A stretch of DNA of 64,000 bases from Dehalococcoidia bacterium UBA1162 (GTDB lineage: Bacteria; Chloroflexota; Dehalococcoidia; GIF9; UBA5629): positions 73,852-137,851 of the forward strand of contig DBZK01000037.1 of the NCBI GenBank assembly GCA_002311135.1, in the 5' to 3' direction. The notes below the pieces were generated by a model that did no database searches, was not told where the DNA came from, and saw nothing but the letters and a program-made list of their open reading frames with translations. This document shows positions 23,955 to 42,816 of the stretch, piece after piece (the first letter of the stretch is position 1; each line of letters starts with the position of its first letter). Both the position numbers and the translations under genes were made by a program.

Positions 23955-25376
23955 ATGGATGCTACTGAAAATCGCTGTACTCTTGCATTTAAACAAATAG
24001 GTAAAGTAATCAACAGCGATTTGCCTTTTAAAAAGCTTATGAACTTGATAGCCGCCAGCGCGGCGCGGGCGCTGCAGGCGTCTGGGTGCGCTATTATGGT
24101 GCTCAATCCTCAACGTGAATATCTCGATATCATCGGCGCCTCTGGGCTGAGCGACGTCTATTTACGCAAAGGAGCATTGAACGCCCGCAAAAGCTACCCG
24201 GAGATCCTGGACGGCAAGACTGTAGCAGTTGAAGATTTTTTAGCCGATAAAAGAACTCAGTTCCCCGAGCAGGCGGCCAAGGAAAACCTTAAGTCACTGC
24301 TGGGTGCGCCCATTTTGCAAAAAGAGGAGGTGCTGGGGGAGATCAGGATCTACACGCATGAAAAAAAGCACTTCAAACCGCATGAGAGAGACTTCATTGC
24401 CACCGTGGCCAATATCATTGCGGTGACGCTGGAAAAAAATGAACTGTACCAGTACTTAAATACACACCATGAGACCAAGGTTACGCAGCAAAAAAAGCTC
24501 ACCAGCTTCTCCCACCTCCCTTTAAAACCGGTGCGTCCGACAACCTTCAGCCACCCCAGCGAAGAAGAGTTTGCCAGGCTGTTGGATTTTTACCAGGTGG
24601 AATGGCTGTACGAGCCGCGTTCATTCCCGTTGTCCTGGGAAGATAAGAGGATTACCGAGATGTTCACTCCGGATTTCTACCTGCCTGAGATCAATTTGTA
24701 CATCGAGTTAACTACTTCCAAGCAAAGCCTTATCACCGAGAAAAATCGTAAGCTGCGCCAGCTCAAGGAGCTCTATCCGGATGTCAACGTAAAACTGCTC
24801 AATAAAGCCGATTACCTGAAGCTGTTTGTTAAATACGATTTTATACCCCTTGGTGAAAATAAAATGAATGGCGTGCAGAAGTATCTATTCAATAAGACCC
24901 AGATCGACAGGCGCGTTAAGTCGCTGGCGAAACAGATATCCAAGGAATACCAGGGGAAGGACCTTATTCTGATAGGTATTCTGAAGGGGGTTATATGTTT
25001 TATTTCGGACCTTATGCAGAATATATCTATACCCCTTGAATGCGATTTCATGGCGATATCGACCCCCCAGGGCAAGTCCGATTCACCGATCAAAATAACT
25101 AAGGACCTGGATATAGATATTAAAGGCAAACATGTACTGATGGTGGAAGATATAATCGATACGGGGATGACCTTAAACTATATATTAAACTATCTTGCGA
25201 CCCGCAAGCCGGCGAGCTTAAAGGTATGTACGCTACTGGATAAGAGAGTCAGGCGTTTAATCGATGTGCACCTTGACTATATCGGATTCGAGATACCGGA
25301 TGAATTTGTCGTGGGCTATGGGCTGGATGTCAGAGGGAAATACCGTAACCTGCCGTTTATAGCGATTTTAGAATAA
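23955..25376 (+). CDS. in-frame three-part fusion: N-terminal GAF domain, central PD-(D/E)xK-like segment, C-terminal hypoxanthine phosphoribosyltransferase
   Basis: The C-terminal ~177 aa, starting MNGVQKYLFNKTQIDRRVKSLAKQI, form a full HPRT with the PRPP motif VLMVEDIIDTGMTL. The N-terminus is GAF-like. The middle has FTPDFYLPEINLYIELTTSK. There is no stop codon between the parts. Confidence 0.7.
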   Translation: MDATENRCTLAFKQIGKVINSDLPFKKLMNLIAASAARALQASGCAIMVLNPQREYLDIIGASGLSDVYLRKGALNARKSYPEILDGKTVAVEDFLADKRTQFPEQAAKENLKSLLGAPILQKEEVLGEIRIYTHEKKHFKPHERDFIATVANIIAVTLEKNELYQYLNTHHETKVTQQKKLTSFSHLPLKPVRPTTFSHPSEEEFARLLDFYQVEWLYEPRSFPLSWEDKRITEMFTPDFYLPEINLYIELTTSKQSLITEKNRKLRQLKELYPDVNVKLLNKADYLKLFVKYDFIPLGENKMNGVQKYLFNKTQIDRRVKSLAKQISKEYQGKDLILIGILKGVICFISDLMQNISIPLECDFMAISTPQGKSDSPIKITKDLDIDIKGKHVLMVEDIIDTGMTLNYILNYLATRKPASLKVCTLLDKRVRRLIDVHLDYIGFEIPDEFVVGYGLDVRGKYRNLPFIAILE

Positions 25377-25592: not shown

Positions 25593-26372
25593 TCAAGTTA
25601 CCAGTAAGGATATCAAATTAGATATTTCCCGGCCCCACAATAAAGTAACGACCGCACCCGACGCTAGAAAAAGCGCAAAGGGAATAGGCTGGTTAAGCTT
25701 CCAAAGTTTGAGTATTACCATCAGTATAACCGTCAGGCCGCCCATCAAAACCGCCACGTATATGGCTGCGGCGACCAGCGGAAAACCAACCATAAGGCCG
25801 ATTAACCCTCCCATTAGGACATCACCGAATCCAATTACTACTTTTTTTATCAGCCAGGCTATGCACCAGATTAAAAAGAAAAAACCAAAGCCTGCGATAA
25901 ATCCGATGCCTGCGCCGATTATGTCGGGTGATAAACCTGCCAGGATTTTGACCAATGTGATTATGAGGACAATCCCAATGGACGGATAGATAATTATCCC
26001 CGGCAAAAAGCCGCTCTCCAGGTCTGTAATAGACAGTACTATCAGGATGCAAATGTAGAGAAGGACAACCGGCAACTGCCACTGCAGACCTAGCACGGCC
26101 CATGCCAGCACAAAGAGCAACCCGGTGATCAGCTCCACCAGCATCGACCTCAGTGGTATGCCGGCGCCACAGTAACGGCACCTGCCCTTTAAAACTAAAT
26201 AGCTGACGACGGGTATCAAGTCCCTTGCTTCCAATACATGACCGCAATTGAAACAATGCGAGGGGGGGGACACAATGGATTTACGCTGCGGCACCCTGTC
26301 TGCCACGACATTCAAAAAACTGCCAAAGCTAATGCCTATCAAGAATAAAATAAACGCTAAAATAATTTCCAA
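25593..26372 (-). CDS. pilD: prepilin peptidase (A24 family) with N-terminal zinc-finger
   Basis: CFNCGH...CRYCG tetracysteine followed by a polytopic membrane domain; 259 aa. Confidence 0.85.
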   Translation of the reverse strand: MEIILAFILFLIGISFGSFLNVVADRVPQRKSIVSPPSHCFNCGHVLEARDLIPVVSYLVLKGRCRYCGAGIPLRSMLVELITGLLFVLAWAVLGLQWQLPVVLLYICILIVLSITDLESGFLPGIIIYPSIGIVLIITLVKILAGLSPDIIGAGIGFIAGFGFFFLIWCIAWLIKKVVIGFGDVLMGGLIGLMVGFPLVAAAIYVAVLMGGLTVILMVILKLWKLNQPIPFALFLASGAVVTLLWGREISNLISLLVT

Positions 26373-26376
26373 GTGA

Positions 26377-28845
26377 TTAATTACTTCCAGGTATCTTTGA
26401 TTCTCTATCCATCAGGCCGCCGACTATGGCTTGCCTCTCGGTTTGAAATTCGCTGTGATTGCTCAACATAGCATTAACCACACCTGCCAGCAGGGTAATA
26501 TCCTCGTCCGGCACTATTTCGGCCGATTTCCCAAATGCCTGCACAGAGTCCTGGTAGTCCCTGCCGTAGACATCGGTAATACCCAGCAACATATATCCTT
26601 TCCAATCGCTTCCATCACTATTAAGGTGGGATTTTAAAGCGCCTATCACCGAATTTATGTCACTGGTCCTGTAAGTGGTCAACATACTGCAAAAATTAAT
26701 ATAGTAGCTTATATCTTTCACGTCTTTGACCGGCGTGATGATAAAATCGGCCGCTGCCTGTTTATCGCCATTATATATTTCCAGCAATCCCTGAAAAAAT
26801 GACGTCTGAATCCACAGCGGATCGCTTTTAGCCGAGTCGGCCAATTTTTGTGCCGCCGCCGGATAATCTCCTTTGAAGATCAGGGCCAGTGCCCATTTGT
26901 TCAGGATCACCGCATTTGCCGGGAATATCCGGTCGGCTTTTTCATAAAGCCCGATGGCATCATCAAATTTATCCTTATTGCCGTTTAGAGCCCAGTAGAC
27001 ATCCACGTCAGCCAGCCTGTAATACCAGATAGCCATGGCCGGGTCCACGCGGATTGCATCGTAATAAGCTGACTCACTTAGGGAAAGCAATTTTGCTTTC
27101 TCCTGGGGGTCGCTGCTCCCCTGAGCCATCATATAAGCCAGGTCACCCACGAAGTTGTGATAATAGGATTGCTGGGGTTCGATCCTTGCCGCCTCAGTGT
27201 ACATGGCCATAGCGGCATTCTTGTCTTTGTTATAGAGGGTCAATCCGCTTTGAATATAGGTGTTTGCCAGTAAAGGAGTTGCCGTAAGGCCGGCTCCAAT
27301 AGCAATAAATATCATAATTACGATCATCGAGATGAGTTTTTTTATCAGGCCGGGGCCTGTTTCCGCAGCGTTCTGCCCTTCCTCTTCTACATCGACAGGC
27401 TGCTTCGGCAGGGTAATTTCTCCCTCTGAGTGGATTCGAATCTCGGCCACTGTTAATGCCAAAAACAGCCAGAATACCAGCTCAGCCGTAATGACCGAAG
27501 GGTCGAAAAATACGTGCGCACAGTATTGCACAATGGCGGCGATGAAGGCTGATATAAGCAGGATTGAATTTCTCTCTCTGCTTCGCAGCAGGTATTTAAA
27601 GCCCTTGTAGAAGAAGATGCCCAGAATCACTAGAAAAGCCAGCAAACCCAGGATGCCCAACGTCAGTGCCAGGTACAGGTAATGGTTTTCGGGCTGCGAG
27701 ATTACCAGTGATTCAAAAGTATATGTAGCTTTCCAGGCGGGGGGAAACCTGGTTTGGGACATGGCTATGAAGGTCTCGGGCCCATATCCGATGAGCGGCC
27801 TTAAGAAGTGCCAATTATCCTGTAGATAAGGGATCTCAGGTGATTGAGTAATTACCTCTACAGCGCACTGCCATGTTTGCAGACGGATGGGCAAAGTTCC
27901 CAGCCCTACCTGTTCGGCCATTGTGGCATTTTGAGTGCGGCTCTCACCGGGTAAAACACCGTTCTCCGGGATAATCATCTGACCGAGCAGAACTAGCGCA
28001 ACCAGCACTATAAACAGGAGGGACAAAATACTGAGACCCATGGTTGTCTTTCTTTGCAGGAAAATGCCGACCAGCACAAAGAAGGTAAAAATGCCTATTA
28101 TGAATAACAGCAGGGTGATGGAATATTGCGCCAGCGCCAGGCAACACATCTGCAGGACAAATACCGCCAGCAGTCCGACGAACCTGATCCACTTCACTGT
28201 TCTGGATAACGGTGCATACCAGGTCAGTATGATTAAAGCCAGTGTGACCGGCAAGATCATGGCTATGAAGCCGCTTAACGATAGTGGGTTGCCATCGATA
28301 GACACCACCCTGCCGCCCAGTAGACCCCAGGGAGCAAGGAAAAATTGCACTATGCCGATCAAACAAACTATGGCTGAAGCTATCACCAGCGCATACAAAG
28401 CACGGTAAACCTGCTTGCGTGACCTTATTTTCTGTGACACGATCAGGAAAAAAATGATCCATGATATATTGGGGAGCAGTCCCACGCTGCCGGCCAGGTT
28501 CCCCCACAGACTCTTATAGGGCATGATCGAGCAGACTGTCGATATAATCCATATCAAACCGAAGCTTACTACAGCAACCTGCAGCGGCGATCCTTTTACC
28601 CTTTTTAGCAGGCCTTTCCAACTGATTTCATGCTTGGAAAGCAGCCACTGAGCCAATACCAGGCCCAGTAACATACACACTAAAAATACCAGGACAAGCG
28701 ATTTAACAAAATAATAAGGATTGAGGCAAAAGGGATCGTAAGCAAGCGGAACCAGGAAGATCGTCAGCAGCCATACATATTCAATGGCTTTCTCCAGCCC
28801 GTTATATAAATTGCTGTTTCGATTGCCGGTTAATTCCATTCGCAC
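26377..28845 (-). CDS. O-antigen ligase (Wzy_C) family polytopic membrane protein with a C-terminal TPR domain; candidate pilin O-oligosaccharyltransferase
   Basis: More than 10 predicted TM helices. Wzy_C-like motif PENHYLYLALTLGILGL. C-terminal ~330 aa of TPR-like repeats. Sits between pilD and pilA. Confidence 0.65.
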   Translation of the reverse strand: MRMELTGNRNSNLYNGLEKAIEYVWLLTIFLVPLAYDPFCLNPYYFVKSLVLVFLVCMLLGLVLAQWLLSKHEISWKGLLKRVKGSPLQVAVVSFGLIWIISTVCSIMPYKSLWGNLAGSVGLLPNISWIIFFLIVSQKIRSRKQVYRALYALVIASAIVCLIGIVQFFLAPWGLLGGRVVSIDGNPLSLSGFIAMILPVTLALIILTWYAPLSRTVKWIRFVGLLAVFVLQMCCLALAQYSITLLLFIIGIFTFFVLVGIFLQRKTTMGLSILSLLFIVLVALVLLGQMIIPENGVLPGESRTQNATMAEQVGLGTLPIRLQTWQCAVEVITQSPEIPYLQDNWHFLRPLIGYGPETFIAMSQTRFPPAWKATYTFESLVISQPENHYLYLALTLGILGLLAFLVILGIFFYKGFKYLLRSRERNSILLISAFIAAIVQYCAHVFFDPSVITAELVFWLFLALTVAEIRIHSEGEITLPKQPVDVEEEGQNAAETGPGLIKKLISMIVIMIFIAIGAGLTATPLLANTYIQSGLTLYNKDKNAAMAMYTEAARIEPQQSYYHNFVGDLAYMMAQGSSDPQEKAKLLSLSESAYYDAIRVDPAMAIWYYRLADVDVYWALNGNKDKFDDAIGLYEKADRIFPANAVILNKWALALIFKGDYPAAAQKLADSAKSDPLWIQTSFFQGLLEIYNGDKQAAADFIITPVKDVKDISYYINFCSMLTTYRTSDINSVIGALKSHLNSDGSDWKGYMLLGITDVYGRDYQDSVQAFGKSAEIVPDEDITLLAGVVNAMLSNHSEFQTERQAIVGGLMDRESKIPGSN

Positions 28846-28949
28846 CCATGCCGGGACACACAGATTTTCACTTATTATACTATGCCGCGGGCAATCTTGG
28901 ATTACAGGAAATGTGACCTTAGTACTATAAAAATGTGACCAATTGGCTA

Positions 28950-28977
28950 TTTACATTACGATCGTGGGAAGTATAAT
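28950..28977 (+). promoter_or_regulatory. candidate pilA promoter TTTACA-N16-TATAAT flanked by direct repeats
   Basis: Two copies of GATCGTGGGA (28960-69 and 28980-89) straddle the -10. Two copies of AAATGTGACC (28909-18 and 28931-40) lie upstream. Confidence 0.4.
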
Positions 28978-29064
28978 TGGATCGTGGGACAAAAATAGAT
29001 AGTAGATTAACGTAGCCGGTCAGGTCGATCCGGCTAGTTGAGCAGCTAATTTAGGAGGTAAACT

Positions 29065-29391
29065 ATGAAATTATTTAAATCAGCGCAAAAGGGTTTTACG
29101 CTAATCGAGTTGTTGGTGGTCATTTCCATCCTGGGCGTCCTCGCTGCTGTGGTAATCCTTAACGTTACCAAGTACATGGGCCAAGGCAAGACCCAGGCTG
29201 GGGCAACCGAGCTGGCCAATGTGCAGACGGCAGTATCAGCCTACATGTATGACAACACAGGCGCCATCGCGGCCGGTACCGCCACCCCGGCCAATAGCGG
29301 AGGTATTCTGTCCCCCTATTTCCTGGGCAGTCCGCATGGAAGCTATAGCTGGGATTCAACCGGCAAGGTAACCCAGACAACCTATCCGTGA
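29065..29391 (+). CDS. pilA: type IVa major pilin
   Basis: Class-III leader MKLFKSAQKG with cleavage before FTLIELLVVISILG (F1, E5). 108 aa. GGAGG Shine-Dalgarno upstream. Confidence 0.85.
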   Translation: MKLFKSAQKGFTLIELLVVISILGVLAAVVILNVTKYMGQGKTQAGATELANVQTAVSAYMYDNTGAIAAGTATPANSGGILSPYFLGSPHGSYSWDSTGKVTQTTYP

Positions 29392-36219: not shown

Positions 36220-37779
36220 TTAAGAGATGGAAAAGGCATTCCTGAGGACTTCATAGGGGGTAGTGATCCCGGCTTTGGCCTTCATCATGCCGTCTTTAGC
36301 AATGGTCACCAGGCCCTGGCTGAGCGCCGTGGCATGGATATCCTGATTTCCTGCCCCCGCCACTATCATACGTCGCAGCTCATCGGTCATGGTCAATATC
36401 TCAAATATTGCGGTGCGCCCCAGGTAGCCGGAATATACACATTCTTTGCAGCCTGCGCCGTACATAAACTCCGTCCTGCTCTCCCCCATCTCTTTCTCGT
36501 AGGCTATTTGCTCAACCAGCGGTATCGTAACCTTGCGGGCACAATGAGGGCAAACGCGCCTGACCATCCTCTGGGCTACTATGCCTACCAAAGCGGAGCT
36601 TATCAGGAACGGCTCAACGCCCAGGTCGATCAGCCGGAATATCACTCCCACTGTCTCATTTGCATGAACGGACGAAAGGACCAAATGTCCCGTAAGCGCC
36701 GACTGAACGGCAATCTGCGCAGTCTCACCATCGCGTATCTCACCCACCAGGATCACATCGGGATCGAGCCTGACGATAGACCGCAGCCCGCTGGCAAAGG
36801 TCAGGCCTGCCTTGATATTTACCTGTATCTGATTAATATTTTCAAAGCGGTACTCGACCGGATCTTCGATGGTTATAATGTTCTTGCCCACACTATCCAG
36901 GGAGTTGACCGCCGCATAAAGGGTGGTTGTTTTGCCGGCGCCTGTCGGGCCGCTGATCAAGACCATGCCATAGGGCATCATCAGCATCTTTTCATATTGC
37001 TCCTGGCTTTCCCTGAGAAAGCCGATCTGCGGAAGAGCCAGCGCCGCCATAGATTTATCCAGAAGCCTCAGTACGCCCATTTCACCGTTAACAGTATTGA
37101 CTGTGGCCACGCGTACATCTATCCTCTTATCCCCGGATTCGAAGGAGAATTGCCCGTCCTGCGGCCGGCGGTGGTCGGCAATATTCATATCGGAAAGGAT
37201 TTTGATGCGTGATATTAATGCGGTATGTACGCTCAGAGGCAACGAGGCGACCTCATGTAAAATACCATCTATCCTGTAGCGAACGCGTAGCCTTATTTCA
37301 TCCGGCTCAATATGGATGTCGGAGGCACGTGCCTTGACACCTTCCTCCAGCAGCCTGTCGAGCTGGCGGGCTATAGGTGTATCGGAGGCCTCATCCGCCA
37401 TTGTAACATCGACTGGAGACTGGGTTGGAGAAGTCCGTTCACCACCCTTGCTCCCCTCTTTCATCGTCTTGTAATTGTAATCAATAGCCTCTTTAATATC
37501 AGCCTCTGTAGCAGGTATCGGCTCAATCCTTTTTTTAGTATAAATTGAGAGGTTCTCTATGGTGAGTATGTCGCTGGGATTGGCCATGTATACGCGGCAC
37601 GTGTTGCCGTCCAGGGATTGTGGCAGCACATTATATTTCCTGGCGATATCCTCAGGCACTAGTTGCAGCGCCTCCGGCATGGGCGCGTCCGACTGGACAT
37701 TCAACCTGGCAATACCAGGCTTGGCCGGACCATTCCTAGTATTGGACCTGCCCTTTGTTTCGTTGGAATCAGATGCCAT
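36220..37779 (-). CDS. pilB: type IV pilus assembly ATPase (GspE family)
   Basis: N-terminal T2SSE_N domain, Walker A GPTGAGKTTT, tetracysteine CPHC...CKEC; 519 aa. Confidence 0.9.
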   Translation of the reverse strand: MASDSNETKGRSNTRNGPAKPGIARLNVQSDAPMPEALQLVPEDIARKYNVLPQSLDGNTCRVYMANPSDILTIENLSIYTKKRIEPIPATEADIKEAIDYNYKTMKEGSKGGERTSPTQSPVDVTMADEASDTPIARQLDRLLEEGVKARASDIHIEPDEIRLRVRYRIDGILHEVASLPLSVHTALISRIKILSDMNIADHRRPQDGQFSFESGDKRIDVRVATVNTVNGEMGVLRLLDKSMAALALPQIGFLRESQEQYEKMLMMPYGMVLISGPTGAGKTTTLYAAVNSLDSVGKNIITIEDPVEYRFENINQIQVNIKAGLTFASGLRSIVRLDPDVILVGEIRDGETAQIAVQSALTGHLVLSSVHANETVGVIFRLIDLGVEPFLISSALVGIVAQRMVRRVCPHCARKVTIPLVEQIAYEKEMGESRTEFMYGAGCKECVYSGYLGRTAIFEILTMTDELRRMIVAGAGNQDIHATALSQGLVTIAKDGMMKAKAGITTPYEVLRNAFSIS

Positions 37780-37806: not shown

Positions 37807-39228
37807 TCATGCTAAAGTGGCCGCGTCCTCAACATTTATAATTTTTATCTTCTGCTGTTCGGCGAACTGCTGCGCCTCTTTGGCCAGGCCGGGCGACGCC
37901 AGCAGTATTTTGTCGTGGATGCCGATATCGTAGGCTTTGGTATCGTAGGCGGAGACCGCCTCCAGACTGACCCCCTTGGGATCCACCAATATTCCAATAG
38001 ATATGGTATGCGTGAACAGGCCGTCGTCATAATAAGCGATAATATCCATAGTGTATTCGGCGCCCGATCGGCCGCGTATCCTGGCTTTTTCCTCCGTCCT
38101 GTAACCCTGTCCGTGCAGATATTTCAATAGCTGTTTGCGGCTCTCAAAGCTGAAAGGCTTTTTATTGACCTTGGCCGGCAGGTTGTCCGCAGCTCCTTTT
38201 AAGAACGTCTCCAGCTCATCGGCGTTGAACGATTTGATGCGCTGCCTCTGGGCAAATTGCCTGGCTTCGCTGTTTAGTCCCGGCATAGCCAGCAGAATCT
38301 TATCGTGTATACCCAGGTCATAGGCCTTGTTATCGAATCTGAAGACATCCTCCAGGCCAATATTCTCCGAGTCGTGCCCGATGGCTATACCTATGCCCAG
38401 GACAAATGTGAGGAACCCATCGTCACGCGAAGCCAGCATATCCATGACATGCGTTACGCCCGACCCGGACCCGCTGTTCACCCTGGCTTTCTCAAACACG
38501 TTATAGCCCTGCTGTTCCAGGTAGCTGATAAATTTAGACTTAAAGCCCATATCAAAAGTCAGCCAGTTCCTGCTCAGCTCATTCAAAATATACGAGTTTA
38601 TGGTCTGTACTTTCGCTTCTTCATCCGAGAAGAAGATGGAGCATTTAAGGCACTGCCACTTCATTGTGATCTCGGTGGAAAGTCCGCCGCAGCTCTGGCA
38701 TTTATAGTTCACGCCCAGGCTGCGATAATCAGTCCCCAAGAATTTAAGCGGCTTTTTACAATGCGGGCAGACGTATTTCCCCCCGGCGATAAACTCCTGC
38801 TCAAGCCCGTTCTTCCCACAGGAGAAGTGCTCAAGTATCCTTCCTTTGGCGACATTGCCCGACCCGCATTTGGGGCACCTCAAACTGGGCCTCAAATTCA
38901 TGGAACTACATACGGGACAAAAGATCAGGCGGTCATAGAAGCGGGCCTCCAGTATGCGCTCTTCAACCAGGCTGTCCAATATTTTTACAACCTCTTCTGA
39001 TGTCTTGCCCAGCATGGTTTCAACCTGGGGATATACGGCGCCGGACTGCCTGGTGAAGTCGATAACCGGCCGTATCTCTTCAATACGGCCGTCGATCATT
39101 TCGTTGATGAGGTGCAGCACCTTGGGATCATGCGTTGCCGTTTGAGAAGCTTCTAAAATCTCGATCATTTCATTCCCCGCATACAAAAGTGTATGGACCT
39201 TGCTTAAAAAACAAATACGCGGTCCCAA
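37807..39228 (-). CDS. uncharacterised protein: N-terminal winged-helix-like region, three zinc-ribbon motifs, two tandem degenerate Mrr_cat-like (restriction-endonuclease-fold) domains; first gene of the pilus operon
   Basis: 473 aa. Zinc ribbons CPVC-x10-CPKC, SC-x15-CPHC and CQSC-x12-CLKC. Two ~125-aa repeats share YLxxQGYxVxEKARVxxxSG...DML/IIA...DDG...KAYD(L/I)GIHDKILLAxPGLxxEAxQFAxxQxIK. Only 27 nt separate it from pilB. Confidence 0.6.
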   Translation of the reverse strand: MGPRICFLSKVHTLLYAGNEMIEILEASQTATHDPKVLHLINEMIDGRIEEIRPVIDFTRQSGAVYPQVETMLGKTSEEVVKILDSLVEERILEARFYDRLIFCPVCSSMNLRPSLRCPKCGSGNVAKGRILEHFSCGKNGLEQEFIAGGKYVCPHCKKPLKFLGTDYRSLGVNYKCQSCGGLSTEITMKWQCLKCSIFFSDEEAKVQTINSYILNELSRNWLTFDMGFKSKFISYLEQQGYNVFEKARVNSGSGSGVTHVMDMLASRDDGFLTFVLGIGIAIGHDSENIGLEDVFRFDNKAYDLGIHDKILLAMPGLNSEARQFAQRQRIKSFNADELETFLKGAADNLPAKVNKKPFSFESRKQLLKYLHGQGYRTEEKARIRGRSGAEYTMDIIAYYDDGLFTHTISIGILVDPKGVSLEAVSAYDTKAYDIGIHDKILLASPGLAKEAQQFAEQQKIKIINVEDAATLA

Positions 39229-39420
39229 TGTCCGAGCCTGTTAAAAATAGCTATGGCTCGCACTTTGTTTTTACTGCATTCCAGATTCATTTAGCTTAAT
39301 CTAGCATGCGATTCCGCATTTTGCAAATATGTCATTGTTTATGGTAGATTTCGACTAACTCTAATATAAATGAATTCCTGCCAAAATCCATGCCGCTCTA
39401 GTACCAGGGACTAAAGTCCT

Positions 39421-42400
39421 ATGCATAGTGAACGTAGCTACCGTATATTTGTAATCCTACTGCTGCTGGTACTAAGCATTTTAGATATATGTTCCTTCTG
39501 TCCTGCCGCTAATGCAGCCGGCTCAACCACCAGGACGCTGACCTGGTCCGTTGTGACAACGCCGGCCGAAGGTCCAGATAATGTAATCCGAAGGGGCAGC
39601 GAGATCAACTCCATGGCCTTGGGCCAGGGGGTAATTTATTGCGCCGACACGGAAAATCAAACGCTTTTCCGCTCCATCAACGGGGGTTACAGCTTCACCG
39701 ATATAAGCCCCAGCCTTGCCGCTGCCGGGGCCATTTTGCCGGTCTGGTCGGTTGCCTTAGCCCCGGACGATGCGCGCTTCGTTGTAGCAGTCACTAATAC
39801 GCCTCCTGTGCCCGCACCACCTCATCAGGGGCCCCAGCAGGTCTATGTATCCATCGATGGCGGAAACAACTGGCAAAGTGCTGGCCTATCCTGGAGTACG
39901 GTAAATCCTGGACCGGGCACAAACAGCATCGGCAAAGACGAATGGATAAGCTGCGTAAGTCTGTCCAATCAATACGGTAACGGATTTCGCGATATAGCTA
40001 TCGGCACACGTACCGAAACCAACTCCGGGCAGGTATTAAACCTCAAATACGGCACTCTTGGCGGATGGCTTACGCAGGGTACTTTACCGGGTGCTGTAAC
40101 GTCCCTTAAATTCTCTCCTAACTACCTTACCGACTCGACGCTGGCCGTCATCTCCTGTGATAAGGTATCCATCCCCAATGCTGCTGGACTCTACTTAGGC
40201 CAGAGGGTCACCGACATTAATACGACGACATGGAGCACAGGAACCATCTTCGCCACCGTCCCCGTGGGAAAGGTGATCGGCACCGATCTTGCGTTGCCAT
40301 CCGATTTTAACGGGCAGAACCCGGCATCGCAGGGCTGCTTTACCAGCATCCAAGCTGACTCGACTTTCACCGATCTCATGGGCAGGCCTACTCAAACGGG
40401 AGTCTTTTATATAAATCCCCTTTTTCTCGGTTCACCCTTCACAATTACACCCCTACCTGCTCTCTCTCCAGGACGCCGAATATATTCGATTGCCTACAAT
40501 GGCAGCCAGGTCACCGGCATCCTACTGGCAGGTGAGGCAACGGCCAACCCTGCCACTGCGATGGTTCCGGTCTATCAAAGCTCCAATGCGCAATCCTCCA
40601 GCCCGGGTGTTGCCACCTGGACCAGCTCGCAGGACTATAACAGCTTCAAATCACCCACCGGGGGCGGGAATACTAACAGTCCGAGTACTCCTAAAATTTA
40701 CTATGCCAACGCTATACTGGTCTGGGGTTATAACGGTGTAGCCTACTGTGGCACCAGCTCCGAAGATGATTATACCGGAGGAACAGGATGGAATCCCGGA
40801 CAATGGCCTAAATCTAAATTGAATTCTGTCCCTCTGGATGAGTCCGCTTTTTCATACAGCTACAACAATGGGCTTGGCTGGAACCAGATCGGCTTGATAG
40901 ACACTGAGATCAGTCAGCTATCGGATTCGGCAGCTCTTGAACCGCCTCCGGCGGCTACCCAGTCCAGCGTGCTGTACCTTTCTTCCATAAACGGAGCGCC
41001 AAATAGCTTCGACAGCGTATGGCGTTCCACCAGCGATACGCTCGGGGATCAATGGGAACGCATCCTGATCCACACGACAAGCAACGTCGGAACGATCTTG
41101 CGTGTGAACATGAAGGAACCGACGTCTACGGCACTGATCTTCGGCTACTTGACTACACCCACAATAATGTATACGGCAGATGAAGGGCAAAAATGGGAAT
41201 TGATATTGGCCGGAATATCGTCCCTACGTGATATAACCTTCAGGGACGAGTCGACTATCTACGTCCTTGAGGATTACAGGATAAGGCAGCTAACTATGGG
41301 AGACACCAACTGGGTGCCGGGGGAATTCGTCAATACGGATTTGCTGATACCCGCACATACCATATGTACCCCGCTGGTCAACCCTACCAGCGCAGATCTA
41401 GTCTTCGTAGGCTCAGGCATCAGCACAGCGGGAAACTCCGAGGCTTACGTAGCCTGGACCGATTTTTCTCAACCTTCGCCTAAATTCAACATACTTAGAA
41501 TGCTGCCGCAGAGCGGCAACGTGCATGTAATTGCGGATAGTAAATACGACCAGAACAATATCATTTATGCAGCCGTAAATGTTGATATACCTCCGAGCAG
41601 TGATGGAGTTATTTACAGGTGGACCATCGGGAAGAGCACGGACTGGGATGAGCTGGAGCCGGTCAACCGCGCTTTTTTTGGGATCGCCATGGCCGGCGAT
41701 GTCCTCTATGGCGCCTGGAACTTTGATACTACCACACTGCTGAACAGCGGGGGCGTGGACCGCACACTCGATCCCAGGATCGATGTCCCCCCGGCGCCGG
41801 AGTGGGATGAGCTGAAAGACGGCCTTCCGGTATCTACCGATACTACTAATTTCCCCGTACTTTTCACTCATGAACCCACATCGCTTAAAATCTCATCCAG
41901 TACCAATAATACCTTGTGGGCCATCGATAATCTCGATAAAACTGCAAAAGTTTACGACTTCGATAATAAGATCGGCTGCCTCTGGCAGTATATAGATTCT
42001 GTGGCCAGAGTAAGCCCCTGGCCGATTGCGCCGGCATCCGGCAGCTTCATAGGGGCAGATCCCGTTACCGGAAGATCTCAGCAGATAGATATAAAATGGC
42101 GTCCTCTTCAGGACATCTTCGGCTATGACATCCTGATGGCCAAGGATGTTAATTTTACATTATTGCTAACACAGAATATCAACATGTTCCCGGTTGATAA
42201 TAAGACAGGCGCCTGGGTAGTGACGCTCGACCAATCACAGCAGCTCTCTCCGGGCGTCTGGATACCCCCGGGCGTATTGGAAGCGGGCAAGTCCTACTAT
42301 TGGGAAGTAAGGGGCAGCAGGACCATAACCGGCGCTGCCATTCACAGTCTGTGGTCGCCTGTAATGTTCTTCTCGGTCAAACCTGGTTTCGCTGTCAGGG

Positions 42401-42816
42401 GCATCGGAAACGGCCCCCAGCTTTTAACACCCATCGACGGTATGTGCCAGGACTGCCAGCCGACAATCGGCTTTAGCTGGACGCCGGTTAAAAATGCTAA
42501 AAAATATGAGTTCACCCTGGCTAATGATCAGGACCTTAAAAACATATTGGTTCAAACTGTTACGACCACGACTGCATACAAATATGAAGGCAAGCTTGAG
42601 CCGGGCAGAATTTATTTCTGGCGGGTGAAAGCTGTGGCCCCCTTCGAAAGCGACCCCAGCCCAACAGGAACTTTCGTCATAGCCGGCAGCCGGCCCCTGA
42701 TATCATGGCCGTCCCTTCCCCCATCCTACCTCTGGATAGTGGTAATTATTGCCGCGGCAGTCCTGGTGGTTTTGATTGTCGCCTTATTCATCTACAATTA
42801 TATGCGCAGGTATTAA
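39421..42816 (+). CDS. giant secreted, C-terminally membrane-anchored surface protein with BNR/Asp-box motifs and Ig/FN3-like C-terminal domains
   Basis: 1131 aa. Signal peptide MHSERSYRIFVILLLLVLSILDICSFCPAANA. Asp-box-like SIDGGNNWQS and SINGGYSF. C-terminal TM helix LWIVVIIAAAVLVVLIVALFIY followed by NYMRRY. Confidence 0.7.
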   Translation: MHSERSYRIFVILLLLVLSILDICSFCPAANAAGSTTRTLTWSVVTTPAEGPDNVIRRGSEINSMALGQGVIYCADTENQTLFRSINGGYSFTDISPSLAAAGAILPVWSVALAPDDARFVVAVTNTPPVPAPPHQGPQQVYVSIDGGNNWQSAGLSWSTVNPGPGTNSIGKDEWISCVSLSNQYGNGFRDIAIGTRTETNSGQVLNLKYGTLGGWLTQGTLPGAVTSLKFSPNYLTDSTLAVISCDKVSIPNAAGLYLGQRVTDINTTTWSTGTIFATVPVGKVIGTDLALPSDFNGQNPASQGCFTSIQADSTFTDLMGRPTQTGVFYINPLFLGSPFTITPLPALSPGRRIYSIAYNGSQVTGILLAGEATANPATAMVPVYQSSNAQSSSPGVATWTSSQDYNSFKSPTGGGNTNSPSTPKIYYANAILVWGYNGVAYCGTSSEDDYTGGTGWNPGQWPKSKLNSVPLDESAFSYSYNNGLGWNQIGLIDTEISQLSDSAALEPPPAATQSSVLYLSSINGAPNSFDSVWRSTSDTLGDQWERILIHTTSNVGTILRVNMKEPTSTALIFGYLTTPTIMYTADEGQKWELILAGISSLRDITFRDESTIYVLEDYRIRQLTMGDTNWVPGEFVNTDLLIPAHTICTPLVNPTSADLVFVGSGISTAGNSEAYVAWTDFSQPSPKFNILRMLPQSGNVHVIADSKYDQNNIIYAAVNVDIPPSSDGVIYRWTIGKSTDWDELEPVNRAFFGIAMAGDVLYGAWNFDTTTLLNSGGVDRTLDPRIDVPPAPEWDELKDGLPVSTDTTNFPVLFTHEPTSLKISSSTNNTLWAIDNLDKTAKVYDFDNKIGCLWQYIDSVARVSPWPIAPASGSFIGADPVTGRSQQIDIKWRPLQDIFGYDILMAKDVNFTLLLTQNINMFPVDNKTGAWVVTLDQSQQLSPGVWIPPGVLEAGKSYYWEVRGSRTITGAAIHSLWSPVMFFSVKPGFAVRGIGNGPQLLTPIDGMCQDCQPTIGFSWTPVKNAKKYEFTLANDQDLKNILVQTVTTTTAYKYEGKLEPGRIYFWRVKAVAPFESDPSPTGTFVIAGSRPLISWPSLPPSYLWIVVIIAAAVLVVLIVALFIYNYMRRY

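Follow-up and report, generated by a model that had tools for sequence, protein, structure and literature searches.

The first cistron of a type IV pilus (T4P) operon in Dehalococcoidia bacterium UBA1162, located within a 64,000-nucleotide stretch of contig DBZK01000037.1 (hereafter the window), encodes a cytoplasmic, bacterial member of the TackOD1 protein family. In this protein, an N-terminal TackOD1 domain is followed by two tandem domains with a restriction endonuclease (REase) fold that are very likely devoid of catalytic activity. We use iRE to denote one inactive REase-fold domain and iRE2 to denote the tandem pair. Judging from sequence, predicted structure, and gene context, we propose that the TackOD1-iRE2 protein functions as a non-catalytic signal-coupling accessory or regulator that partners with PilB, the pilus extension ATPase, although our confidence in this assignment is about evenly balanced. 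We infer action on the PilB motor from the finding that a sister copy of iRE2 is built into PilB itself in related bacteria.

The gene had originally been predicted as a 473-residue open reading frame (ORF) on the minus strand at positions 37807..39228. This ORF is real and conserved, and its closest genome match, from a fen Dehalococcoidia metagenome-assembled genome (MAG), is 96% identical. However, the count of 473 residues begins at a TTG codon and appears to start too far upstream. The roughly 120 close homologs of the TackOD1-iRE2 protein are nearly all 452 to 454 residues long with an N terminus of the form M-[IV]-E, and GGGGA (39174-39178) lies 5 nt upstream of an ATG at 39168. For these reasons, the coding sequence probably extends over 37807..39168 and specifies 453 residues, with its stop codon at 37807-37809, and the in-frame TTG at 39228 is an unlikely start. 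Residue numbers given below refer to the 453-residue frame; adding 20 yields those of the 473-residue frame.

The gene heads a co-oriented pilB-pilC-...-pilT operon, as predicted, and its stop codon is separated by 27 nt from the ATG of pilB (37779) on the same strand. The product of pilB (36220..37779, minus strand), which is the proposed target or partner, carries an MshEN domain (residues 23-107) and a T2SSE domain. The downstream genes on this strand encode PilC (T2SSF), two N_methyl pilin-like proteins, a DUF7305 protein, a 199-residue protein that matches no family, a PilM-PilN fusion, and PilT. A prepilin peptidase gene (25593..26372) lies beyond PilT.

The prediction that the C-terminal half comprises two repeats of the Mrr_cat fold is well supported. 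The Pfam Mrr_cat profile matches this half of the protein in two stretches (E = 3e-8, 34.2 bits versus a cut-off of 21), and the two repeats are 47% identical to each other (E = 6e-35). An AlphaFold model derived from 101 sequences has a mean predicted local distance difference test (pLDDT) score of 82, with values of about 90 over most of both iRE domains that fall to about 69 at residues 231-240. When this model was compared with the PDB by using Foldseek, the matches included AF1548 (1y88; E = 5e-6, 2.2 Å), NucS (2vld), Can2 (8bao), MspJI, and EndoMS. The first domain, iRE-1 (38191..38550, minus strand; residues 207-326), has the topology α-β-β-β-α-β-α-β, with D243 on β2 and the sequence LTFVLGIGIA on β3. 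The second, iRE-2 (37810..38139, minus strand; residues 344-453), shares this topology and has D375 on β2 and THTISIGILV on β3. Sequence searches of the PDB with the tandem module and with a 25-sequence repeat profile returned nothing meaningful.

The (E/Q)xK motif that is characteristic of the active fold had been predicted to be missing, and it is. The reference protein, E. coli Mrr, carries D203 on β2 and Q219-A-K221 on β3, whereas both β3 strands of the window protein contain no acidic, Gln, or Lys residues, with the β2 aspartates D243 and D375 being present. Note that hhalign and hmmsearch comparisons of the repeat profile with E. coli Mrr aligned only the β4-α3 portion, which hhalign anchored to Mrr residues 246-266, and that the pairwise local alignment of repeat 1 is visibly misregistered. 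Nevertheless, the inactive call is independent of the exact alignment because acidic, Gln, and Lys residues are absent from β3 whichever register is chosen. Conservation of the other candidate catalytic residues, H288-D289-K290, does not extend to the PilB-borne copies described below. The catalytic residues are consequently not intact, and the repeats match an REase fold rather than a characterized family of another kind. Relatives of the protein score 17 to 33 bits against the inactive REase family NA-iREase1 (PF22722; gathering score 27) without an independent stretch, the weak matches noted among them being at 24.9-33.4 bits, and this family is not among the Pfam matches of the window protein at E ≤ 1. 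A PADLOC search of the protein yielded no match to a defense family, with only a 13-bit match (E = 0.0076) in the zinc-binding region, and a defense-system role was rejected on this basis.

The evidence for a connection to PilB comes from a genome scan in which one genome per species was examined and 70 loci were recovered. All of these, bar one labeled Calditrichales, derive from Dehalococcoidia or Chloroflexota MAGs, and every carrier found is uncultured. The loci were sorted by tblastn with the pilus proteins of the window and by hidden Markov model scans of six-frame ORFs. Among class A loci, 26 encode a full-length TackOD1-iRE2 protein with pilB following on the same strand, its start at -7 to +168 nt. 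Three others (L031, L034, and L067) have the gene behind pilMN-pilT, with pilA next in L031 and L067, and a few are undecided because the contig ends too soon. Class B comprises 28 loci with an ORF of 764 to 857 residues in which the order of elements is iRE-iRE-linker-MshEN-T2SSE, and no TackOD1 gene is present in the DNA fetched. Four loci constitute class AB (L020, L022, L023, and L035) and have both a TackOD1-iRE2 gene and, 0.65 to 3.4 kb downstream, an iRE2-PilB fusion.

In total, iRE2 is fused in frame to the N terminus of PilB in 32 loci, each with a continuous ORF of the 764- to 857-residue size and with Pfam matches that confirm the arrangement. Three metagenome proteins (P0131, P0144, and P0174) are independent examples of the same fusion. 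This fusion, which a reading of the window alone could not have shown, is the strongest pointer to function. The linker between iRE2 and MshEN is flexible and rich in Lys and Pro, which fits a tethered regulatory module. Stand-alone iRE2 sequences in L045 and L046 are cut by contig ends and were not counted as a separate architecture. Every unfused homolog examined resides inside a T4P gene cluster, which bears out the initial suggestion that the protein is a regulator or adaptor dedicated to the pilus. A neighbor-joining tree of iRE2 modules (midpoint-rooted, no bootstrap) is cleanly split into TackOD1-borne and PilB-borne clades, and the four class AB loci are represented in both. Because the clades are separate and both are present in the class AB loci, the two iRE2 modules are old paralogs rather than assembly artifacts.

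Two additional observations were made at these loci. Only in class AB, between the TackOD1-iRE2 and iRE2-PilB genes, there are one to five tandem paralogs of 141 residues (L023, 11625..13756; L022, 3124..5458; also L035 and L020) that weakly match MAPKK1_Int (MP1/Roadblock-like; E = 0.003). Roadblock/MglB-type proteins are regulators of pilus polarity in Myxococcus. In L063 (9989..12950), which is from a long-read MAG, the TackOD1-iRE2 and pilB genes are both broken across several frames, probably due to sequencing frameshifts rather than because they are pseudogenes.

The N-terminal half of the window protein matches Pfam TackOD1 (PF18551) over residues 17-194 (38587..39120, minus strand), corresponding to profile positions 10-187 of 188. 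The match is strong with the full protein (E = 3.4e-38, 131.5 bits versus a cut-off of 32) and with the N-terminal half alone (E = 4.6e-39, 134.4 bits). The original prediction held that the protein was novel and without equivalent in described T4P loci, but this is incorrect given that its N-terminal 190 residues are TackOD1, a domain published in archaeal T4P loci. Earlier work placed arCOG06883/TackOD1 proteins in T4P loci of Thaumarchaeota "as well as in some bacteria" (PMC4858521; PMC5847659), and the domain received its name in 2018 in a report that likewise noted its occurrence "in some bacteria" and stated that its function "remains obscure" (PMC5847659). Moreover, public databases already label the 453-residue homologs with PF18551 and PF04471. 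The suggested archaeal flavor of the architecture, on the other hand, is genuine.

A triple zinc-binding region spans residues 84-176 (38641..38919, minus strand), in keeping with the three CxxC-type ribbons that had been proposed. The three predicted sites pair C84xxC87 with C98xxC101, H114xxC117 with C134xxC137, and C157xxC160 with C173xxC176. Of the 12 predicted ligands, 11 do not vary among 101 homologs, and the remaining one, C137, is retained in at least 90% of them. This set of 11 Cys residues arranged as five CxxC motifs and one HxxC motif exactly matches the published signature that defines TackOD1 (11 Cys, "5 CXXC and an HXXC"; PMC5847659). The domain matches, the conservation of these ligands, and the similarity of the C-terminal repeats all go far past what chance would give. 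AlphaFold confidence is low in parts of the region (residues 105-127 and 143-153). No match to Response_reg (REC) is present in the window protein, and REC occurs only in its relatives.

Preceding the zinc sites, and within the Pfam TackOD1 match, is a head that resembles a winged helix-turn-helix (wHTH) domain (38920..39126, minus strand; residues 15-83), with helices at residues 15-25, 47-53, and 57-69 and a long β-hairpin from 73-83. The pLDDT values of this head are about 87-92. Foldseek searches with a separate model of residues 1-204 recurrently returned winged helices of ArsR/SmtB, MarR, CodY, and TFIIE (rmsd 2.7-3.5 Å over ~75 columns), but none was significant, with every E value above 0.2 (best 0.2-1.5). 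Likewise, no HTH family in Pfam or NCBIfam was matched by the window protein or by its N-terminal half. Based on the predicted structure and on these recurrent matches at ~3 Å, a winged helix is plausible, whereas the specific "TrmB/MarR-like" label originally given to it is unproven.

The wider family was examined by an exhaustive HMMER search with the tandem module against 1.84 billion representatives, which recovered only 156 proteins at E ≤ 1e-3. Architectures were established for 152 sequences, consisting of 150 listed representatives and two cluster members, and the only partners of this iRE subfamily were TackOD1, REC, and PilB; the remainder were stand-alone iRE ORFs or fragments. TackOD1 precedes a single iRE in 19 sequences and iRE2 in 10. 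Proteins with REC were found as REC-TackOD1-iRE2 (eight, plus one with three copies) and REC-TackOD1-iRE (four), and iRE2-PilB was found seven times, plus variants. Relatives with REC in front of TackOD1-iRE include L032, P0123, and P0126. The other 97 sequences have iRE or iRE2 without another detected domain, and many of these are short fragments.

Proteins of ~320 residues with TackOD1 and a single iRE, rather than the two present in the window protein, are encoded adjacent to a T2SSE gene and two T2SSF genes, with a KaiC-like ATPase also present in one locus. By gene content, these are Tad/archaeal-type T4P loci. Note that L071-L073 are called archaeal from gene content only, as the source names gave no taxonomy. 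The size of these proteins agrees with that of the archaeal TackOD1 proteins of 303-344 residues (Table S4 of PMC5847659). Elsewhere, two REC-DZR-TackOD1-iRE2 genes (L032, 3795..6734; L077, 804..3930) are each preceded by the gene for an OmpR-type response regulator, and the short contigs concerned carry no pilus genes.

TackOD1 also follows PilZ or REC in proteins that lack iRE, and the two of these that were looked up (P0287 contig; L078, 3800..4723) adjoin GT2 genes that are polysaccharide-synthase and chitin/cellulose-synthase-like, with PilZ-TackOD1 also residing beside an MFP-like gene. PilZ proteins act post-translationally in a polysaccharide-synthase setting, as with Alg44 and BcsA. 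Because these PilZ- and REC-linked proteins adjoin GT2 rather than pilus genes, TackOD1 is not exclusive to pili. The existence of REC-(DZR)-TackOD1-iRE2, REC-TackOD1-iRE, and PilZ-TackOD1 relatives argues that the TackOD1-iRE family participates in signal transduction.

How might such a protein act? The co-transcriptional placement with pilB, the dead nuclease fold, the PilB-fused paralog, and the relatives wired to REC or PilZ together point to iRE2 as a module that would act at the PilB hexamer, with TackOD1 serving as the signaling end. The iRE2 module may contact PilB directly or may pair with PilB's own iRE2 where that is present, and such pairing would mirror the common dimerization of nuclease-fold domains. 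In this way, the protein would make pilus extension responsive to a signal post-translationally, in a role analogous to that of PilZ/FimX or of the cyclic di-GMP (c-di-GMP) domain MshEN in other bacteria. Phosphorylation or c-di-GMP are candidate signals in the fused relatives. The stand-alone form could instead respond to the metal or redox state at its 11 cysteines, or to a ligand in the disabled active-site cleft.

Several findings weigh against this proposal. The genes for REC-fused members are not located near pilus genes, and the wHTH-like head, together with the fact that response-regulator outputs are mostly DNA-binding, favors a transcription factor. The module is found both beside bacterial MshEN-PilB and beside T2SSE ATPases without Pfam MshEN, and two types of ATPase are easier to reconcile with a DNA-binding regulator than with a specific docking partner. 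Furthermore, iRE-iRE pairing is impossible in the window because the PilB protein encoded there lacks iRE2. Finally, a module for docking alone would be pointless once fused to its target, so iRE2 must sense, oligomerize, or bind something.

The best surviving alternative is that the protein is a one-component transcription factor whose TackOD1 head binds the promoter of the operon or of pilA, with iRE2 serving as a ligand-sensing or oligomerization domain that was independently grafted onto PilB elsewhere. We regard this as possible but doubtful. Evidence relevant to it was found upstream of the gene, where a conserved block (39298..39354, minus strand) contains TCGAAATCTACCATAAACA at 39336-39354, a -35-like TTGCAA at 39321-39326, and a -10-like TAGATT at 39298-39303, with ATGCG-N4-CGCAT in the 17-nt spacer. 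Across the window and eight other loci whose proteins are 65-96% identical, the hexamers and the block vary little or not at all, and the pattern is matched in 8-10 loci. Within the window the block occurs once, against a chance expectation of 0 copies. From these sequence features, positions 39298-39354 are the probable promoter of the operon and possibly include a candidate regulator site. The combination TTGCAA-17-TAGATT scores below the threshold of the consensus scanner, whereas the class B loci mostly have near-consensus promoters (TTGACA-16-TAAATT or TACATT). This contrast between the sub-consensus promoter of the window clade and those of class B is suggestive only.

The gene for the major pilin, pilA (29065..29391, plus strand; 108 residues beginning MKLFKSAQKGFTLIELLVV), is located on the strand opposite the operon, between pilT and a gene for an 822-residue protein. 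It is conserved in L002-L005, L009, L012, and L033 and is duplicated in L004. The region upstream of pilA (28909..28989) contains 10-nt direct repeats in two pairs: AAATGTGACC occurs at 28909-28918 and 28932-28941, and GATCGTGGGA occurs at 28960-28969 and 28980-28989 with TATAAT between the copies. The AAATGTGACC pair recurs in L001-L004, and in L004 it is present twice, next to matches to both pilA copies. These repeats are a candidate regulator site that is so far unconnected to the TackOD1 protein. No second copy of the block found upstream of the operon was detected in the window, pilA included, which counts against the transcription factor hypothesis.

Other evidence on the transcription factor hypothesis is similarly divided. 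The wHTH-like secondary structure and the recurrent ArsR, MarR, CodY, and TFIIE structural matches are in its favor, as is the fact that relatives use TackOD1 as an output domain for REC and PilZ, given that most such outputs bind DNA. The gene always adjoins its presumed target operon, and a DNA-binding protein would have no difficulty in moving between T4P loci of the bacterial and archaeal types. However, the head lacks an HTH family match and all its Foldseek E values exceed 0.2, the iRE2-PilB fusions place at least the iRE2 half at the protein level, and PilZ-TackOD1, with its MFP-like and GT2 synthase neighbors, resembles post-translational c-di-GMP receptors. Archaeal regulators with a wHTH domain and a zinc ribbon, such as TFE/TFIIE-α, share the order of a winged-helix-like head followed by one or more zinc ribbons, and TFIIE is among the weak fold matches, but there is no significant score, and the window protein differs in having three zinc sites rather than one and additional REase-fold domains.

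A second alternative, which we consider improbable, is that the protein is a nucleic-acid-handling accessory of a competence-type pilus, in which the dead REase domains and zinc ribbons tie DNA uptake or processing to PilB. Inactive REase folds and zinc ribbons often bind nucleic acids, TackOD1 has been compared with the Cys-rich insert of PriA (PMC5847659), the fold matches are all DNA or RNA enzymes, and PilB scores well against ComGA/PilB models. However, comEC, comEA, and dprA were not noticed in the operon, PilB is cytoplasmic with no known contact with incoming DNA, and the data hold nothing that points specifically to DNA. Least probable by far is an active Mrr-type (type IV) restriction or defense nuclease that resides beside pilus genes by chance, since the above-threshold Mrr_cat score, the retained β2 aspartates, and the known migration of catalytic residues in PD-(D/E)xK enzymes are opposed by β3 strands without a charged residue, the loss of H288-D289-K290 in PilB-borne copies, the strict T4P linkage and fusion to PilB, and the weak matches of relatives to an inactive REase family.

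Comparison of the TackOD1-iRE2 protein with known systems helps to define what is shared and what is distinct. The TackOD1/arCOG06883 proteins of TACK-group and other archaea (Makarova 2016, PMC4858521; Galperin 2018, PMC5847659) have the same N-terminal domain at near full length, the same five CxxC motifs and HxxC motif, a location in T4P loci, and an occasional REC fusion, whereas the window protein is bacterial and is encoded in a PilB/PilC/PilM/PilT-type operon rather than an archaeal-type locus. Descriptions of the archaeal proteins mention only the zinc-ribbon part, with neither an REase-fold C terminus nor a link to PilB. With the Mrr_cat nucleases (E. coli Mrr, AF1548 1y88, NucS/EndoMS, and Can2) the protein shares fold, topology, and the β2 aspartate, but its β3 strands carry GIGI or SIGI without (E/Q)xK, the domain is duplicated in tandem, there is no modification-reading domain, and the context is a pilus operon. 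NA-iREase1 embodies the same concept, namely a dead REase fold N-terminal to an oligomeric P-loop NTPase that presumably acts as a sensor or regulator, but its partner is a NACHT/STAND NTPase and its setting is immunity rather than PilB and pilus biogenesis, and the window protein does not match it. In PilZ-FimX-PilB and MshEN systems, a cytoplasmic signal receiver acts on or in the N terminus of PilB, which is the role proposed here, and PilZ-TackOD1 fusions exist; however, neither iRE2 nor TackOD1 is homologous to these components, and the likeness is one of proposed role only.

Our literature search found nothing on an REase-fold C terminus of TackOD1 proteins, on Dehalococcoidia members, or on a link to PilB, and found no described iRE-PilB fusion or Dehalococcoidia pilus regulator. 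What the present analysis contributes is the fusion to PilB, the relatives that carry REC or PilZ, and the linkage across systems, which together make a testable PilB-associated regulator out of a family of obscure function.

Other genes near the operon were also noted. The 822-residue protein encoded between pilA and the prepilin peptidase gene (26377..28845, minus strand) is a membrane protein with weak O-antigen-ligase (Wzy_C) and TPR matches, and its gene is kept downstream of pilT in class A loci. A 473-residue GAF and phosphoribosyltransferase protein is encoded at 23955..25376 (plus strand). Divergent from the TackOD1-iRE2 gene, a gene at 39421..42816 (plus strand) encodes a 1131-residue protein with a signal-peptide-like N terminus and a C-terminal hydrophobic anchor, which matches no family in Pfam, NCBIfam, or PADLOC. 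In most class A loci it is conserved beside the TackOD1-iRE2 gene, and it is also conserved in some class B loci (L038, L054, L056, and L065), and its product may be a co-regulated surface protein.

The switching of T4P motors is understood in a few proteobacterial and myxobacterial models, including PilZ/FimX, MshEN-c-di-GMP, PilG/H, and MglA/B, and almost nothing is known about this process in monoderm-like or uncultured phyla and in archaea. Tentatively, and with less assurance than we attach to the partnership with PilB, the TackOD1-iRE proteins and the PilB-borne iRE2 could constitute an unrecognized pathway for control of the T4P motor that is possibly common to archaea and Chloroflexota. 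In such a pathway, REC phosphorylation, PilZ and c-di-GMP, or the Cys-rich zinc domain would relay a signal via an iRE module that is either docked on the extension ATPase or built into it. If this is true, the iRE pair would represent a class of regulatory domain not previously recognized at the N terminus of PilB-family ATPases, and would add an example of a nuclease fold reused to regulate a secretion-type ATPase. The TackOD1-iRE family is a conserved candidate regulator with a concrete and testable partner in PilB, as indicated by the natural iRE2-PilB fusion, and these findings offer a likely working context for TackOD1, a Pfam domain whose function is listed as obscure.

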